Shown: positions 1,848 through 14,038 of the stretch, piece by piece
Numbering within the stretch: the first letter of the stretch is position 1
Layout: each line of letters opens with the position of its first letter
Made by a program: the position numbers and the translations under genes
Notes under the pieces: generated by a model
Told to the model about the DNA's origin: nothing
The model's database searches: none
The model's input: the letters and a program-made list of their open reading frames with translations, nothing else
DNA from: a bacterium
GTDB lineage: Bacteria; Patescibacteriota; Microgenomatia; Curtissbacterales; GWA2-41-24
Assembly: GCA_021813125.1 (NCBI GenBank)
Contig: JAKALT010000001.1
Span: 23 to 64,022 of the forward strand
Reading direction: 5' to 3'
Length of the DNA stretch: 64,000 nucleotides

Positions 1848-3989
1848 ATGGCTACTAATACTACAAACAGATTATATCCGCTCGATCGAATCCGAAACAT
1901 CGGTATCATTGCTCATATCGACGCGGGCAAAACGACAACCACGGAAAGAATCCTCTTCTATACCGGTAAATCCTACAAACTCGGTGATATCGACGAAGGT
2001 ACAACTGTTACCGACTGGATGGAGCAGGAAAAAGAAAGGGGAATAACCATAGTTTCCGCAGCCGTCACTGCATTTTGGACCCCAAAGGCGGGTCTAATGA
2101 AAGACATCGAAACCCGCATCAACATCATTGACACTCCCGGACACGTTGATTTTACGGCCGAAGTCGAAAGGTCACTGCGCGTTCTAGACGGTGGAGTAAC
2201 GGTCCTCGACGCCGAAGAAGGCGTCCAGTCACAATCCGAAACCGTTTGGCGTCAGGCAGACAAATACAATGTTCCGAGGATTTGTTTTGTTAACAAAATG
2301 GACAAAATGGGGGCAGATTATTTTGCAACGCTAAAATCTATACGCGAGCGCCTGGGCGCACCGGCGGTTCCATACAACATTCCAATAGGCAGTGAAAATG
2401 ACTTCCGCGGAGTAGTTGATCTTATAACCAAAAAAGCCTTTGTCTGGGAAGCAGACCCAAAGGGTCTTGGTAAGGAATTCAAAGAAGAAGAAATCCCGGA
2501 AAATTTAAAAGATGAGGTCGAAAAGTGGCGCGCCGAACTTGTTGAAAAGATCGCCGAAACGGATGATAGCCTGACGGAAAAATTTCTTGCGGGCGAAGAA
2601 ATAACGGAAGCCGAACTCAAAAGCGCTTTGCGTGCAGCGGTTATCAAATACAAAATCGTGCCGGTGTTGGCAGGTTCATCACTTAGAAACAAAGGTGTCC
2701 AACCGCTCCTGGACGCGGTTGTCGAATATCTTCCCTCCCCGCAGGATATTGAGACAATCGAAGGAACAAATCCTAAAACCGCCGAAAAAGAAGTCCGCAA
2801 GTTGGTAATGGAAGAACCCTTTGCAGGGCTTGCATTTAAAATTCAAATCGATCCCCATGTTGGAAAGCTCACCTACGTCCGTGTTTACTCCGGTACTCTA
2901 AAATCGGGCACGTCAGTTCTAAACACGACCAAACATGACCGCGAAAGGATTGGCAGGATTCTTTTGATGCATGCCAACACGCGCGAAGAAATAACCGAAG
3001 CTTACGCTGGTGAAATTGTGGCGATCGTCGGCCTTAAAGGAACAGGAACAGGGGATACACTTTGTGACGAAGCCCACCCAATTATTCTCGAATCGATTTC
3101 CTTCCCTGAGCCGGTTATATCACTGGCCATTGAACCACAAACAAAAGCGGACCAGGAAAAACTAGGGTATGCACTAGGTCGTCTTAGCGAAGAAGATCCG
3201 ACATTCAGAATCAAAGGTGATCCGGAAACGGGACAAACCATCATCTCCGGGATGGGCGAACTGCATTTGGAAATTTTGGTAGATCGCCTGAAGCGTGAAT
3301 TTTCCGTCGGCGCCAATGTCGGCTCCCCACAGGTTGCCTACCGCGAAACCATTAAAGAGACCGCAACTGGTGAAGGTAAATATATCCGTCAATCAGGTGG
3401 CCGTGGTCAGTACGGCCATTGTTTCCTTAGAGTTGAGCCAAAACCAAGGGGTGAAGGTTACGAATATAAATCCGAAGTTAAAGGTGGCGCTATTCCGCAG
3501 GAATATATCCCGTCTATCGAAAAAGGTGTACGCGAAAAAATGGAAATGGGTGTCCTTGCAGGATATCCTTTGGTCGATATGAAAGTCATTGTCTACGACG
3601 GAACCTACCACGATGTAGATTCTTCCGATATTGCTTTCAAAATCGCAGGATCTATGGCACTGGAAGAAGCAGCTAAACACGCCAAACTAGTTTTACTGGA
3701 ACCTATAATGAAAGTGGAAGTTACTGTCCCCGAAGAATTTATGGGCGATGTAATCGGAGATTTATCAAGTAAACGTGCTCAGATCCACGGTTCGGATCAT
3801 CACGGCAATTCCGTTATCATCAACGCACTTGTCCCCTTGGCTGAAATGTCAGGCTACGTCACAACTTTAAGGTCCATGACGCAAGGCCGCGGTTCCGCTT
3901 ACATGGAACCATCCCACTACGACGAAGTCCCCACCAATATCTCCGACAAGATAGTTGCAAAAAACAAGGGCGAGAAAAAAGAAAGCTAG
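1848..3989 (+). CDS. fusA: Translation elongation factor G
   Basis: 713 aa. G-domain motifs [21 protein letters not shown]. Full EF-G domain layout. Confidence 0.97.
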
Positions 3990-4036
3990 CCCTATAGTTT
4001 GACATTCACCTATAAAAAGTATAAAATTCATTCCTT

Positions 4037-4354
4037 ATGAATCGGGAAAATGATTATCTTGGAGGTTTACTCAGACATTATGTTTCTGGTCGCCAAGGAG
4101 ATGAAGATTACTTAAGACCACAAATTGATCTTTTTGATGGAGAAATCCAAGGTTTTCAAGTTGGAGATCGTATTAGATTTTCTGATGAAGCCTATGAACA
4201 GTTTAGAGGCAAGGAAGCAAGGGTTGCAGGCTTCGACAGCGATTTCAATATCTGGACCCAAATGGACGGTGAAAGTGGCTATAGTAGGACACCAAGAGAG
4301 TTTGCCCATAGAGCATTTACATTAGTCAGACGTGAGGAAGTGTCTGACAAGTAA
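4037..4354 (+). CDS. Hypothetical protein (105 aa), part of the segment inserted after fusA
   Basis: ORF only. Acidic protein with no recognised motifs. Lies inside the region bracketed by the fusA 3' direct repeats. Confidence 0.4.
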   Translation: MNRENDYLGGLLRHYVSGRQGDEDYLRPQIDLFDGEIQGFQVGDRIRFSDEAYEQFRGKEARVAGFDSDFNIWTQMDGESGYSRTPREFAHRAFTLVRREEVSDK

Positions 4355-4401
4355 TTTCTGCTAAAATCTTCTTGTGAAACTACTTTTAACTTCAAACGGT
4401 C

Positions 4402-4671
4402 TTATTTGCCGTAAACTTGATTATGCGTTCCGATATCTACAAAATAGGCGATATTTTTATGAATATAGTAAACAACCCTAATGTCTCCGGTTACGGAAAA
4501 AGCGTGTTTTCCTAACATTTTCTTGCCAAGCGCATGATTTTTAAGAATCGGGTCATTTTCATTTACAACGAATAATCTTAACTTTTCTTCAAACCTTAGC
4601 TTTACATTTGGCTTGTTTGAAAAACGTTTTTTGTAAATTTTGACAAATTCATGAGTAAACTCTACCTTCAT
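4402..4671 (-). CDS. Type II toxin, RelE/ParE superfamily, YafQ-like mRNA interferase
   Basis: 89 aa. ...LKNHALGKKMLGKHAFSVTGDIRVVYYI...FVDIGTHNQVY resembles YafQ/RelE (HPLxGxWKGxRxxHVxPDWxLIYxx...RTGTHxxLF). Overlaps the upstream antitoxin ORF by 4 nt. Confidence 0.7.
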   Translation of the reverse strand: MKVEFTHEFVKIYKKRFSNKPNVKLRFEEKLRLFVVNENDPILKNHALGKKMLGKHAFSVTGDIRVVYYIHKNIAYFVDIGTHNQVYGK

Positions 4672-4964
4672 GAACGAAGCAGAGTAAGAAGCTCATCTAC
4701 GTTTTTGGTTTTTGTAACATTTTTGCCGGCTTTTATATCGCTGACCGCGCGCTTAAACTTTGCTTCTGCCGCGGGAGAAAGATGATGAATTTCCTCAACA
4801 GGTTCAATTGTCATTGCCAGCTCGTTTTTGGAAAGCTTTGTAAGAAGTACCCGAATTGCTTCCTGCAGCGAAGAAAAACCCATCTCGGAAGAAGCGCTTT
4901 GCGCATTAATTTTTAATTCACGGCTCATTGGAACTTGTAAAATTACTCTTTGCATACAATACAA
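4668..4964 (-). CDS. Type II antitoxin, DinJ/RelB family (start codon uncertain: Met1, Met4 or Met13)
   Basis: ...MSRELKINAQSASSEMGFSSLQEAIRVLLTKL...EPVEEI...SPAAEAKFKRAVSDIKAGKNVTKTKNVDELLTLL parallels E. coli DinJ (RIDEDLKNQAADVLAGMGLTISDLVRITLTKVAREKALPFDL...KAKDADDLFDKL). 4-nt overlap with the toxin. Confidence 0.65.
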   Translation of the reverse strand: MYCMQRVILQVPMSRELKINAQSASSEMGFSSLQEAIRVLLTKLSKNELAMTIEPVEEIHHLSPAAEAKFKRAVSDIKAGKNVTKTKNVDELLTLLRS

Positions 4965-4997
4965 TTATATAGTTTTTGTATGTTTATGTCAACTACC

Positions 4998-5087
4998 TAC
5001 ATGGAACCATCCCATTACGACGAAGTCCCAACAAATATCTCCGACAAAATCGTCGCCAAAAACAAGGGCGAGAAAAAAGAAAGTTAA
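4998..5087 (+). pseudogene. Duplicated 3' fragment of fusA (90 bp, about 90% identical to 3900..3989 including a stop codon)
   Basis: Seen directly: tacatggaaccatccca(t)tacgacgaagtccc...aaaaacaagggcgagaaaaaagaaag(t)ta(a) repeats the fusA terminus. In-frame translation [29 protein letters not shown]. Confidence 0.9.
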
Positions 5088-5135
5088 TTTCTTCTTATAA
5101 ATTTATCTCCAAATATTTTGCTATACTGAAATTAA

Positions 5136-5918
5136 GTGAAAAAAGGTTTTACACCGATTTTTATTTTAATTTCGGCAGGCGTGCTAATCATAGCTACAGC
5201 ATTCATTTTTTTTGCAAAGGTAACTGCTCAAAAGGCTACAACTCTTTCTATACCACCAAAACAGTCAATTAACTCAAGAACAAATAGCTCACCCTCAGCG
5301 ACTATTGCTTTAAAAACACCAATCACGTCTAGTCCAACTCCAACAGATGATCCAAACAACTTTGGTAAGCTTGTCAATAATTATACGAAACAATTTAATG
5401 CAAACGATGTTGGAATAAATTCATCACTACTTTCCGGAAAGCAAGTTTCATATTTGATTTCTCGATTCCATCAAAAAGAAATAACCGAAAAGAAAATTAT
5501 AATTAGTGATACCCCATCTTATGAAGCTGTAGAAGTATGGGAATTCCCGAAAAGTTCGAATCAAACTACCTCTAATCCTGATTATGCTATTTTTTCGGGC
5601 TATGAAAATTATGCCGGTTGGCCAACCTACTTAAAGGATATTGAGTCAGGTTGGAAAGAATTCTATACCAATTCCAATTCAATCAAATTTGGATTTTCTT
5701 ATGATGGTGGTCCCCATTATCTTCAAAACGTAATCCTAGAATCATTTCAAAACTCTTCTGTAAATGGAAATCCAATATTTATCAGGCTATATATGAACAC
5801 TTCTTCAATGGTCTTTACAGATAATTTAAATTGGGAAGATATAATTAACAAACCAGCCATATTAGAAGCAAAAGATAAAATAAAACAACTTGCAGATACC
5901 ATTTCCCTCGTAAAGTAA
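5136..5918 (+). CDS. Hypothetical membrane-anchored/secreted protein (N-terminal TM helix, Ser/Thr/Pro-rich linker)
   Basis: 260 aa. Hydrophobic N-terminus FTPIFILISAGVLIIATAFIFFA followed by SSPTPTDDP linker. No recognisable family. Confidence 0.55.
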   Translation: MKKGFTPIFILISAGVLIIATAFIFFAKVTAQKATTLSIPPKQSINSRTNSSPSATIALKTPITSSPTPTDDPNNFGKLVNNYTKQFNANDVGINSSLLSGKQVSYLISRFHQKEITEKKIIISDTPSYEAVEVWEFPKSSNQTTSNPDYAIFSGYENYAGWPTYLKDIESGWKEFYTNSNSIKFGFSYDGGPHYLQNVILESFQNSSVNGNPIFIRLYMNTSSMVFTDNLNWEDIINKPAILEAKDKIKQLADTISLVK

Positions 5919-5965
5919 ACCATACTTTCCATATCGTCACGAAAAATGTTTTTTACTTTTGGGGC

Positions 5966-5994
5966 TTGCATTTTGGCAAATTTTTATTTAAACT
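5966..5994 (+). promoter_or_regulatory. Candidate promoter upstream of tuf (-35 TTGCAT, 17 nt, -10 TAAACT)
   Basis: Seen directly in the 130-bp spacer before tuf. Confidence 0.3.
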
Positions 5995-6049
5995 ATCCAA
6001 ACTGGTCAGCCTTGATGGGCTGATTGTGCTTTTATAACCAAAAAATATC

Positions 6050-7234
6050 ATGGCAACAGGAAAATACGAAAGAAGTAAACCGCACGTAAATATAGGGACA
6101 ATTGGCCACGTCGATCACGGCAAGACAACATTGACCGCGGCAATAACATCGGTCCTTTCCAAAAAAGGTTTGGCGGAAGCAAAAGCTTTCGACCAGATTG
6201 ACAACGCTCCCGAAGAGAAGCAACGCGGAATTACAATCAACATTACCCACGTCGAGTACGAAACCGAAAAGCGTCACTATGCCCACATTGACGCTCCGGG
6301 CCACGCAGACTACATCAAAAACATGATAACAGGCGCCGCTCAAATGGACGGCGCAATTCTTGTGGTTTCAGCTCCCGACGGCCCAATGCCTCAGACCCGC
6401 GAACACGTTCTTTTAGCTCGCCAGGTAAATGTGCCGGCAATTGTCGTTTTCCTCAACAAGTGCGACATGGTTCAGGATGCCGAACTTTTGGATCTGGTTG
6501 AACTTGAAGTCCGTGAACTTCTGGACAAATACGAATACGACGGCAAAAACGCAACCATCATTCGTGGCTCAGCTAAAAAAGCACTCGAAGGTGATGCCGA
6601 TTCCGTCAAAGCCATCGAAGATCTCATGGCCGCGGTCGACGAAAAAATCCCAACCCCCGTTCGCGATCTGGACAAACCATTTTTGATGCCTGTCGAAGAC
6701 GTTTTCTCGATTAAAGGTCGGGGAACTGTTGTCACCGGCAGAGTCGAGCGTGGAGTCGTTAAAGTAAACGACGAAATTGAAATCGTAGGAATCCGCCCGA
6801 CCAAAAAAACAGTTGTCACAGGAGTTGAAATGTTCCGAAAGGAACTCGACCAGGGCCAGGCCGGCGACAATATTGGAGTATTGCTGCGTGGTATCGAAAA
6901 AGACGATGTAGAACGCGGACAGGTTTTGGCAAAAACTGGTAGCGCAACTCCCCACACCGAATTTGAAGCCGAAGTTTATATTTTAACCAAAGAAGAAGGT
7001 GGTCGGCACACTCCATTTTTCACCGGTTACCGACCGCAGTTTTACATCCGAACAACCGATGTTACAGGGGAAGCCACGTTGCCGGAAGGCACCGAAATGG
7101 TAATGCCCGGTGACAATATTAAAATGAAGGTTAAGCTCATTGTCCCCGTTGCACTCGAAGAAGGCCTTAGGTTTGCCATCCGTGAGGGTGGTCATACTGT
7201 AGGCGCCGGAGTAGTTTCCAAAGTAGTTGCCTAA
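6050..7234 (+). CDS. tuf: Translation elongation factor Tu
   Basis: 394 aa. [27 protein letters not shown] motifs. Confidence 0.98.
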
Positions 7235-7759: not shown

Positions 7760-7765
7760 GTAAAA

Positions 7766-7846
7766 AATTCGAAGCACGAAACCCGAAATCCGAAACAAAA
7801 TGCTAATTTTCGAATTTCGAATTTAGGATTTCGAATTTCAAATTTG
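7766..7846. repeat. Cluster of palindromic TTCGAATTT / CGAAA(T/C)C repeats forming a long imperfect inverted repeat in the rpsJ-rplC spacer
   Basis: Seen directly: ...cgaaacccgaaatccgaaac...ttttcgaatttcgaatttaggatttcgaatttc... An additional perfect hairpin aatcga-cacaaga-tcgatt lies at 7870..7887. Confidence 0.7.
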
Positions 7847-7996
7847 GGGGTTGTGGTTAAAAATTAAATAATCGACACAAGATCGATTAACGAAAAACAG
7901 AATAACGTTAATCGGTGGGACACCTGAAACCCTGATTTGCCTAACCGCGACAGTTTAATTTAAGGAGTCCTACCTTTTTGCTGTAAAAAAGGAAAA

Positions 7997-12485: not shown

Positions 12486-12889
12486 TGCTTGCACCAAAAC
12501 GCGCGAAATTTAGGAAACAATTCAGAAACCGAAGAAAAGGCCTTGCCGTTCGAGGTAGCAGTCTCTCGTTTGGGTCTCATGGCCTGAAGAGCCAGCAGAC
12601 AGCATGGATTACTGCTCGCCAAATTGAGGCAGCTCGTCGTGCAATGACTCATTACACCAAACGTGGGGGAAGAATTTGGATAAGAATTTTTCCGGATAAA
12701 CCTGTGACTAAAAAACCGGCAGAAACTAGAATGGGCTCTGGAAAAGGAGACGTTGACCATTTTGTAGCAGTAGTTAAACCGGGTGCAATTTTATTTGAAA
12801 TGGGATCAATTGATTCTACTGTTGCCCTGGAAGCGCTAAGATTAGCCGCCCACAAATTGCCTATAAAAACAAAAATAATATCAAGATGA
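12485..12889 (+). CDS. rplP: 50S ribosomal protein L16
   Basis: [19 protein letters not shown]... canonical L16. Confidence 0.95.
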
Positions 12890-13134
12890 AAAATAAAGAT
12901 TTACAAGAATTAAAGACAAAATCCTTAAAAGAGGTAAGAGGTAGTATTTCTACTCTTGAAAAAGAAATGGTAAATGCGACACTCGAGCTTAAGATGGGCA
13001 AGATAAAAAATGTTCATCAAGTTGCTCAAATCAAAAGAAGTATTGCCCAGGGCCAAACTATTGCCCGCATGAAAGAGATTCTTGAAAAAGAAAACCAAGA
13101 AAAGATAAAAGGAGTAAAAGATGCCGCAAATTAA
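12886..13134 (+). CDS. rpmC: 50S ribosomal protein L29
   Basis: Small helical protein in conserved position. [17 protein letters not shown]... Confidence 0.85.
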
Positions 13135-13351
13135 AACCGGTACTGTGATATCAACAAAGATGCTAAAGACCGCCGTAGTCAAAATAGATACTGTCGTCAA
13201 GCACCCTTTATACAAAAAGCAAATTAAAAGGTCAAAAAAAATTAAAGCCCGTGATGAAATTGGCGTTAAGGTAAACGACAAGGTAAAAATTGTTGAAACG
13301 AAACCTATTTCAAAAAACGTTAACTTTAAAGTTTTGGAGGTTATTAAATAA
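13121..13351 (+). CDS. rpsQ: 30S ribosomal protein S17
   Basis: 76 aa, OB-fold pattern, conserved position. Confidence 0.9.
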
Positions 13352-13719
13352 TGCTTGCACCCAGATCAATTCTAACTGTTGCCGACAACAGCGGTGCCAA
13401 AAAATTAGTAGTTATTGGCATCGGAAAAGGGACAGGAAAGAGATTTGCAAAAGTCGGTGATATTATCACTTGCGCTGTTCGTGGAGCAATACCAAACAGC
13501 CAGGTTAAAGATCACGAAATAGTCAAAGCGTTAATTGTCAGAACCAGAAAAGAAATAAGACGGCGGGACGGATCTTATGTTAGGTTTTCGGACAATGCAG
13601 CAGTAGTTGTTGACAATAACAACTTGCCGAGAGCAACTCGTATTTTTGGTCCTATAGCAGGTGAAATTAAAAAGAAAGGTTTTTCTAAAATCGCTTCACT
13701 CGCAAAGGAGGTAATTTAA
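13351..13719 (+). CDS. rplN: 50S ribosomal protein L14
   Basis: 122 aa. ...[14 protein letters not shown]... canonical. Confidence 0.95.
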
Positions 13720-13720
13720 T

Positions 13721-14038
13721 ATGCTTAAATTTCAAATCGGTGATGAGGTAAAAATTACAGCAGGCAGAGAGAAGGGTAAAAAAGGAAAAGTTGAAAAAGT
13801 TCTACCCAAAGAATCCAAAGTTGTAGTAGGGGGAATTAATGTTTACAAAAGACACAAAAAGGTTACAAGGACACAGCCGGCAGGAATTTATGAGATCACG
13901 AGACCTATCTCGATTGCATCGGTGAGTCTTCTGTGTCCCAAATGTGGTAAGCAAACAAGAGTGGGTTTCACAAAAGACGGAAAAACAAAAAACAGAATAT
14001 GCAAAAAGTGCAAAAGCAGGATAACTGTGAAGGAGTAA
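13721..14038 (+). CDS. rplX: 50S ribosomal protein L24 carrying a C-terminal CxxC...CxxC zinc-ribbon-like motif
   Basis: KOW N-terminus (IGDEVKITAGREKGKKGKV). C-terminus CPKCGK...CKKCKS within normal length. Confidence 0.9.
   Translation: MLKFQIGDEVKITAGREKGKKGKVEKVLPKESKVVVGGINVYKRHKKVTRTQPAGIYEITRPISIASVSLLCPKCGKQTRVGFTKDGKTKNRICKKCKSRITVKE

Follow-up and report, generated by a model that had tools for sequence, protein, structure and literature searches.

A toxin–antitoxin pair beside a displaced fusA end in the fusA–tuf spacer of a Microgenomates bacterium

Organization of the fusA–tuf spacer

We have analyzed the spacer between fusA and tuf in a 64-kb stretch of bacterial DNA (64,000 nucleotides (nt) of contig JAKALT010000001.1, hereafter the window), where a toxin–antitoxin (TA) pair lies beside a second copy of the 3' end of fusA. 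The fusA gene (1848..3989, + strand) is intact and encodes elongation factor EF-G of 713 amino acids (aa); its last 90 nt (3900-3989) form copy 1 of the repeat, and the identical database protein is annotated with the Pfam EF-G domains. According to the list of open reading frames (ORFs), the tuf gene (6050..7234, +), encoding EF-Tu, is intact as well. EF-G showed 81% identity to the EF-G of Candidatus Curtissbacteria (locus L001) and EF-Tu showed 95% identity to that of the same locus, and therefore we place the organism within Patescibacteria/Microgenomates.

The two genes are separated by 2,060 nt. Downstream of fusA, the promoter scan identified TTGACA-N17-TAAAAT (3999..4027, +; 11/12), followed by ORF105 (4037..4354, +), which we recognized by its homologues and an AlphaFold2 model. 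The opposite strand carries a YafQ/RelE-family toxin of 89 aa (4402..4671, −) and a DinJ/RelB-like antitoxin of 95 aa (4668..4955, −), with the TA promoter TTGACA-N17-TATAAT (4959..4992, −; 12/12) upstream. Copy 2 of the repeat (4998..5087, +) derives from a different fusA allele, of which it comprises 29 codons and the stop. Next come the extended −10 element TGcTATACT of ORF260 (5119..5127, +), which lies 8 nt before the GTG start, can be read straight from the sequence, and is kept in the related locus L105, and ORF260 itself (5136..5918, +), which has an N-terminal membrane anchor. The segment in front of tuf (5965..6049, +) contains the tuf promoter (CTTGCA...TTTAAACTA) and a leader hairpin (6003-6026), the former common to all sister lineages and the latter apparently so. 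The first-pass annotation had described a 90-nt direct repeat of about 90% identity whose second copy ends in a stop codon, with a + strand ORF and a − strand gene pair overlapping by 4 nt between the copies, and the alignment and the ORF list agree with this description. No recombinase was found among the window ORFs from rpsL to rplD, every one of which was accounted for in Pfam and NCBIfam searches, and no Rfam RNA element was matched in the fusA–tuf spacer.

The repeated fusA end

The two copies, 3900-3989 and 4998-5087, are identical at 81 of 90 positions. Homology extends from the Tyr codon at −29 (TAC) exactly as far as the stop codons, and the flanks of the copies are unrelated to each other on both sides. 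This is by far the strongest repeat in the window, where all others reach at most 50 nt at ~70% identity. All nine differences are located at third codon positions and are synonymous, and both copies encode the identical 29 residues and stop. In a dead copy drifting neutrally, about half of the differences would be expected at codon positions 1 and 2, and the probability of the observed pattern (9/9) would be ~0.001 or less. Accordingly, we consider that the copies are fusA ends that diverged in two lineages while both were translated, and that copy 2 is a foreign fusA allele rather than a local duplicate that decayed afterward.

We compared the nine variant sites with the fusA ends of L001, L002, L101, L105, and L106 in search of the native copy, and the sites split evenly. 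Also, a sliding comparison over the last 516 nt of fusA revealed no switch point.

Considering that the direct copies are just 1.1 kb apart and that the window comes from a metagenome-assembled genome, a local origin has to be weighed: the fusA end might have been duplicated in tandem, or a long duplication of a target site might have formed, before insertion and drift, or else the repeat might be an assembly artefact. The purely synonymous changes are incompatible with neutral decay of a dead copy, and the flanks of the two copies match native arrangements of different relatives, as described below. A 90-nt target duplication was rejected on the same ground, since the copies differ, and at synonymous sites only. 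The assembly is supported by three ENA contigs and three Logan contigs, each from a sample of its own (ERZ27237541, ERZ27237554, and ERZ27237587; SRR13241953, SRR13300764, and SRR13240876). All six are 100% identical to the window, and L081, L082, and L083 among them each span both repeat copies. The longest exact match between the copies (26 nt) is, moreover, shorter than usual assembly k-mers. A one-off misassembly, which the first-pass annotation had left as a concern, is thus very unlikely, and we regard the whole group of local explanations as very improbable. Exact-protein look-ups of fusA, the toxin, and ORF260 for variants of the same strain returned only contigs identical to the window, and no empty site.

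Copy 2 begins 5 nt past the −35 box of the TA promoter. We also observed that it is open in-frame toward its 5' side, giving a 35-aa ORF (4980-5087; MFMSTT plus the 29 residues of the relic) that one Logan contig has annotated as a gene. This ORF is probably non-functional.

Spacer types in related lineages

The arrangements found in related lineages differ in what lies between fusA and tuf. Short spacers, of the kind anticipated if the window carried an insertion, were found in the nearest relatives, where fusA is directly followed by tuf after 295 nt (L001) or 156 nt (L002). In L101–L103, whose EF-G C-terminus is 83% identical to that of the window, fusA is followed by an ORF105 homologue (64% identical) and the conserved tuf promoter, and the TA pair, ORF260, and the relic are absent from this spacer. 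In L105, with an EF-G C-terminus likewise 83% identical, fusA is followed by the sole known homologue of ORF260 and then tuf. Positions 653-819 of L105 align with positions 4998-5167 of the window at 77%, through the fusA end and the promoter element TGCTATACT into ORF260, and L105 and the window also match in the promoter element of ORF260 and in the region of the tuf promoter. A frameshift interrupts this ORF105 homologue in each of three independently assembled loci (L101, 578-905, and also L102 and L103), and it is therefore likely to be a pseudogene.

Based on the arrangements of L101 and L105, we consider copy 1 with ORF105 to be one native spacer type, and copy 2 with ORF260 and tuf to be another. 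The proximal block of the window matches L101 and the distal block matches L105, as expected at the border of an illegitimate recombination, with the TA promoter on one side of the joint (4997/4998) and codon −29 of a fusA allele on the other. The first-pass annotation had interpreted the DNA between the copies as an integrated element bracketed by the repeat. In terms of this interpretation, the repeat and the short spacers of relatives were confirmed. The discrete unit was not: an ORF105 homologue occupies the same fusA–tuf position in L101, in a spacer free of the TA pair and the repeat, and thus 3990-4997 does not behave as one element. Likewise, the succession of copy 2, its flank, and ORF260 is native in L105, and therefore the repeat marks the start of the second spacer type and brackets no insert. 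No integrase, transposase, or duplication of the target-site type was found at the window locus or at the four comparable loci described in the next section.

Across Patescibacteria, the fusA–tuf spacer is highly variable, from ~60 nt to 5 kb, extends over kilobases in many members, and contains unrelated genes. According to published work, tuf and rpsL are over-represented in the genomic islands of this phylum (PMC12455944). The position of a TA pair between fusA and tuf, which had been regarded as unusual, is therefore less so, since the variable spacer holds TA or antitoxin-like genes in several Patescibacteria. Solitary genes with a Phd/YefM-like antitoxin domain, with no toxin gene beside them, were observed directly upstream of tuf in several Parcubacteria (L028 11417-11710, L029 5729-6010, and L063 10184-10666), with sub-threshold Pfam matches (E 9e-6 to 1e-2).

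Relics of the fusA end at other loci

In a scan of ~115 fusA loci, the fusA end of each locus was compared with the rest of that locus to detect any further copy. Relics were found in four other loci (L001, L106, L005, and L110), which all belong to Microgenomates; a scan of JGI metagenomes contributed no more than a single close relative (L106) and a single additional relic case (L110). In L001 and in L106, the relic measures 45 nt and is located 44 nt past the stop codon, with no cargo genes. The relic of L005 (~48 nt) lies 4.7 kb downstream and that of L110 (63 nt) lies 1.2 kb downstream. The four relics start 14-21 codons before the stop codon, compared with 29 in the window. The differences in L110 are again all synonymous (11/11 across 21 codons). 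Mirror-image relics of the tuf 5' end were found in none of 104 loci.

In all three loci with cargo, namely the window, L110, and L005, a TA pair lies at the joint, 0-5 nt away, and the three belong to mutually unrelated families. In L110, a DUF433/DUF5615 pair adjoins the relic, which is 4 nt away from the ATG of the antitoxin. In L005, a Phd antitoxin is paired with a ParE-like toxin whose stop codon touches the relic. Neither the cargo of L005 and L110 nor any of the five loci contained a recombinase. The functional fusA end of L110 is followed by a Zn-ribbon gene, whose homologue in L005 (62% identical) comes after the relic with order and orientation unchanged; therefore, both proximal and distal blocks can be native chromosomal haplotypes.

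Several local features accompany these relics. An inverted repeat with perfect 11-nt arms around a 5-nt loop (AGTGATATTTT ACCAC AAAATATCACT; L110 7964-7990) extends across the joint between the antitoxin start and the relic, with its right arm inside the relic. To judge from its placement, it may be an operator or a microhomology joint; comparable microhomology could not be demonstrated at the window joint. In L005, the Zn-ribbon gene and an IS200-like Y1 transposase gene (Y1_Tnp, E 5.5e-9) are located ~0.5-1.4 kb past the relic (12835-13731). A hairpin motif by the L001 and L106 relics was considered as a shared element and discarded, as it is not repeated in the window or other loci.

These five loci bear on the possibility that the window holds the remains of an integrase-type island that targeted the fusA 3' end. 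Such an island would have supplied copy 1 and displaced the native end as copy 2, then lost its integrase and most of its cargo, with the TA pair surviving by the right-hand site. The geometry is the classic one, with a rebuilt gene end, a displaced native end, and the native flank, and TA pairs are common at island ends. Identical blocks of 14-26 nt within the repeat could act as a crossover core, the same gene end has been hit in five loci, and L001 and L106 share a relic boundary. In addition, casposons are documented to integrate at the 3' end of aEF-2, the orthologue in archaea (PMC9939771). On the other hand, an integrase or any other recombinase is missing from all five loci. The region between the copies is absent from L001 and L002, as expected of an element, but ORF105 occurs at the same site in L101 with neither repeat nor TA pair, and the gene on the element side in L110 has its homologue on the native side in L005. 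The relics are also of unequal length (90, 63, ~48, and 45 nt), and the untranslated part of an attachment site would hardly keep purely synonymous divergence over 90 nt. An isolated fusA end carried by a phage or plasmid was sought with the degenerate pattern YMEPSHY[DE]EVP and rejected, since 2.9 million viral contigs gave no match. Considering both sides, we regard a decayed island as an unlikely explanation.

Another explanation concerns why the relics persist and is compatible with either origin: the A-rich fusA end could serve as the upstream promoter part of the next gene and be kept as functional DNA. The native arrangement of L105, where the next gene has its promoter inside the first 50 nt past the fusA stop codon, fits this proposal, as does the relic of L106, which ends 6 nt before the −35 box of tuf. 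Every relic retains its 3' boundary and the native flank. By hand count, identity is higher between the relics of L001 and L106 (34/45 nt) than between the functional ends of these two genomes (27/45), a difference that is statistically unconvincing. Against a promoter role, 90 nt is far beyond what an upstream promoter element needs, and in L001 ~130 nt separate the relic from the tuf promoter. Accordingly, we consider this explanation improbable. The relics of L001 (10174-10221) and L106 (6795-6839) occupy the same position in lineages that are only 71% identical in nt sequence, and this shared relic may reflect selection on the relic or independent site-specific events.

The toxin–antitoxin cassette

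The toxin matched Pfam YafQ_toxin (PF15738) with 31.0 bits, just over the gathering cut-off of 30, and NCBIfam RelE_StbE with 23.5 bits, under its cut-off of 27.9. Its homologues number 309, and among the matches listed PF15738 was carried by 120 of 120. A profile built from 20 family members matched the PDB structures of HP0894, HP0892, and E. coli YafQ (E 2e-5 to 3e-3). Using His, Asp, His, and a C-terminal aromatic residue as the catalytic signature of YafQ, we found H46, D63, H83, and Y87 to be invariant in the 20 members, and H46 and H83 align with His residues in HP0894. Residues F58-S59 of the family presumably stand opposite the catalytic His63 of YafQ. The toxin is presumed from its family to be a ribosome-dependent mRNA endonuclease.

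The antitoxin gene is located upstream of the toxin gene and overlaps its start by 4 nt. Its start, first placed at TTG 4964, was corrected to ATG 4955 (95 aa) based on the N-terminus MQRVILQVP, which is conserved in four cassettes and is of the ribbon-helix-helix type. The top PDB matches of the antitoxin-family profile were two DinJ entries (4ml0_A and 4q2u_A; weak, E 0.015), and the Pfam RelB match was sub-threshold (E 0.038; 14.3 bits against a cut-off of 22.4). Thus, the assignment as a DinJ/YafQ-type pair made at first pass is supported, with the profile match passing for the toxin and falling below threshold for the antitoxin. A palindrome, ATACAA-N11-TTGTAT, spans the −10 box of the TA promoter, a perfect consensus at 4992-4964, and the same motif is found in the cassettes of L087, L089, and L090; it is the probable antitoxin operator.

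Copies of the cassette elsewhere showed 72-80% identity for the toxin and 71-82% for the antitoxin. Their homology with the window reaches from the −35 box through the toxin stop codon and no further, and they are located in unrelated contexts, inside TA islands or beside a diversity-generating retroelement, with no flanking relics. Because the homology is limited to the cassette in unrelated contexts, and given the profile matches, the DinJ/YafQ label is reasonable and the cassette is a compact unit that spreads horizontally. We also considered whether the cassette itself makes the relics. This was rejected, as no duplicated gene ends lie alongside the cassettes in L087, L089, L090, and L091, and therefore the phenomenon belongs to the fusA locus and not to the cassette. 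An apparent rpoA fragment by the cassette of L089 was dismissed as a relic as well, being only a protein with an alpha-CTD-like domain. In L087 (4158-6270), the cassette copy, which is 74% identical, adjoins a diversity-generating retroelement with a reverse transcriptase and the accessory protein bAvd.

ORF105, ORF260, and their promoters

ORF105 gave no match in a word-index search, and a full HMMER scan of 1.8 billion representatives returned 16 homologues. The family is rare and comprises proteins of 74-105 aa as well as repeats inside large AAA_5 proteins, and one repeat-containing homologue carries Pfam SH3_15. The AlphaFold2 model (pLDDT 82) showed an SH3-like beta-barrel matching the Mib (Mind-bomb) repeat, CPH, and KOW-like domains. 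ORF105 is a real gene, and its product is predicted by the model to be a small protein with an SH3-like barrel. ORF260 had no Pfam match, and its one homologue, 47% identical, is the L105 gene located directly between fusA and tuf.

The ORF105 promoter is near-consensus and ends 9 nt before the ATG, and the transcript of this gene is probably leaderless. More generally, ORF105, the antitoxin gene, and ORF260 (4022-4037, 4955-4969, and 5122-5136) all start 8-9 nt past their −10 boxes, a spacing that suggests leaderless transcripts for the three.

The ORF105 promoter (3994-4028, +) and the TA promoter (4963-4995, −) form an imperfect 34-nt inverted repeat with 27/34 identical positions. Their spacers are identical at 12/17 positions (P ~0.003), and the 30-nt promoter pattern occurs at only these two sites in the window. 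Both ends of 3990-4997 thus bear consensus promoters that face inward. This likeness could mean that the antitoxin regulates both promoters, that a promoter was copied, or that the two mark the ends of a unit. A DNA transposon or casposon was rejected here, since there is no such gene and the 34-nt inverted similarity consists of the two promoters.

In the tuf leader, just past the conserved promoter, a stem-loop is followed by a T-rich run (6003-6026). An apparent hairpin with a different stem sequence is found at the same place upstream of tuf in L001, L101, and L105. With no Rfam match for the hairpin, its conserved position suggests that it may be a conserved leader or attenuator.

Neighboring features of the window

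Upstream of fusA, the window contains rpsL (384-851), rpsG (936-1433), and, between rpsG and fusA, an ORF of 82 aa (1536-1784). This ORF encodes a coiled-coil protein whose sole matches are weak and sub-threshold, to the GreA N-terminal domain (E 0.004-0.017); the same gene call was made in independent assemblies. Farther downstream, between rpsJ and rplC, 7765-7849 contains a cluster of TTTCGAATTT-type direct and inverted repeats (repeat families D11, I1, and I17).

Discussion

The region looks like a recombination scar rather than a recognizable mobile element. With modest confidence, we lean toward the interpretation that the spacer is a mosaic of two spacer types of the Curtissbacteria clade placed in series, which arose through one-sided homologous and illegitimate recombination. 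In this case, type A (fusA–ORF105) and type B (fusA–ORF260–tuf) would have been joined end to end, neither replacing the other, with the TA cassette sitting at their joint. When DNA from a related strain entered, one of its sides could have crossed over homologously in fusA or tuf, both highly conserved, and its other side could have been joined illegitimately, 90 nt inside the fusA of the other parent, of whose allele the relic would be the remnant. The divergence of the two fusA ends under protein-level selection in their own lineages would explain why all differences are synonymous.

The position of the cassette at the joint may be a consequence of what the pair does. We expect it to act as an ordinary type II module, in which the antitoxin would neutralize an mRNA-cleaving toxin, as in the family to which the toxin belongs, and would repress its own promoter through the ATACAA-N11-TTGTAT palindrome. 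Recombinants or deletions that lose the pair would then be eliminated, and the shortest heterologous insert still containing it would be favored. Accordingly, the joint may adjoin the cassette because loss of the TA pair is harmful and pair-keeping recombinants persist.

Some of our results weigh against additive recombination. The six related lineages are about equally distant (70-77% nt identity), and the event cannot be polarized. Parental haplotypes of the same species (fusA–ORF105–TA–tuf and fusA–ORF260–tuf) were not found by the look-ups. The adjacency of a TA pair in all three cargo-bearing cases is explained by the selection argument alone. Illegitimate joints would be expected to be placed randomly, and yet the relics of L110, L005, L001, and L106 start 14-21 codons from the stop codon (29 in the window) and L001 and L106 share a boundary, which hints at a site preference. 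Finally, the inverted promoter-bearing repeat at the ends of 3990-4997 is not explained by a recombination model.

Considering the five loci together, we tentatively raise a broader proposal, which we find possible but rather unlikely: the fusA 3' end of Microgenomates may be a recurrent and perhaps site-preferred entry point where DNA is added and TA pairs decide which products survive, or it may be the target of an undescribed cassette system that is free of an integrase. If this is true, only additive joints just past a cassette would persist, since a replacement that loses the TA pair would be lethal, and variable regions beside essential genes in streamlined genomes would grow under the enforcement of addiction.

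On the one hand, the mosaic would mean that a very small, streamlined genome can gain genes beside an essential conserved operon with no visible mobile-element machinery, and that such gains leave a countable footprint in the form of a displaced gene end differing from the functional end at synonymous sites only. On the other hand, the wider meaning depends on the link between TA pairs and joints. If it holds in a wider survey, genomes of uncultured bacteria would provide direct evidence that the outcome of recombination is shaped by addiction modules, in addition to their role in stabilizing plasmids and islands. If it fails, the window shows an ordinary recombination scar in a spacer already known as variable.

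In terms of known systems, the TA pair resembles E. coli DinJ-YafQ and H. pylori HP0894/HP0892 in the order of antitoxin and then toxin with a 4-nt overlap, in a toxin of ~90 aa with the signature of the RelE/YafQ fold family, and in a ribbon-helix-helix-like antitoxin N-terminus with a palindrome over the promoter. It differs from them in very low sequence similarity, the toxin being barely above the Pfam threshold and the antitoxin below it.

The locus also resembles islands and prophages that insert at the 3' ends of tRNA or protein genes and rebuild them: there is a duplicate of the gene end, the native copy has been moved downstream, the target remains intact, and a TA module lies near one end. 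Unlike those, the window contains neither an integrase nor a recognizable island, its blocks match sister chromosomes, and the relic length varies between loci. Casposons integrate at the 3' end of the archaeal aEF-2 gene, as summarized in PMC9939771 with reference to Krupovic et al. 2014, and are therefore comparable in that they target the 3' end of the orthologous elongation-factor gene and have ends with inverted repeats. However, they encode Cas1 and PolB and make identical target duplications of 14-15 bp, none of which are found in the window.

For type VI secretion (T6SS) and Rhs loci of Vibrio, displaced 3' ends and the retention of protective or immunity genes have been attributed to a proposed homology-facilitated illegitimate recombination (PMC5361080, where de Vries & Wackernagel 2002 and Prudhomme et al. 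2002 are cited on this mechanism). Compared with the orphan 3' ends of Rhs, contact-dependent inhibition (CDI), and T6SS loci, the window is anchored in an essential translation gene instead of a polymorphic toxin gene, keeps a type II TA pair instead of an immunity gene, contains a single relic instead of an array, and belongs to a host among the Patescibacteria. In both, a conserved upstream gene serves as the homologous anchor, a new 3' end and its cargo are added while the old 3' end and the downstream genes are displaced, and a protective gene is kept with no dedicated recombinase.

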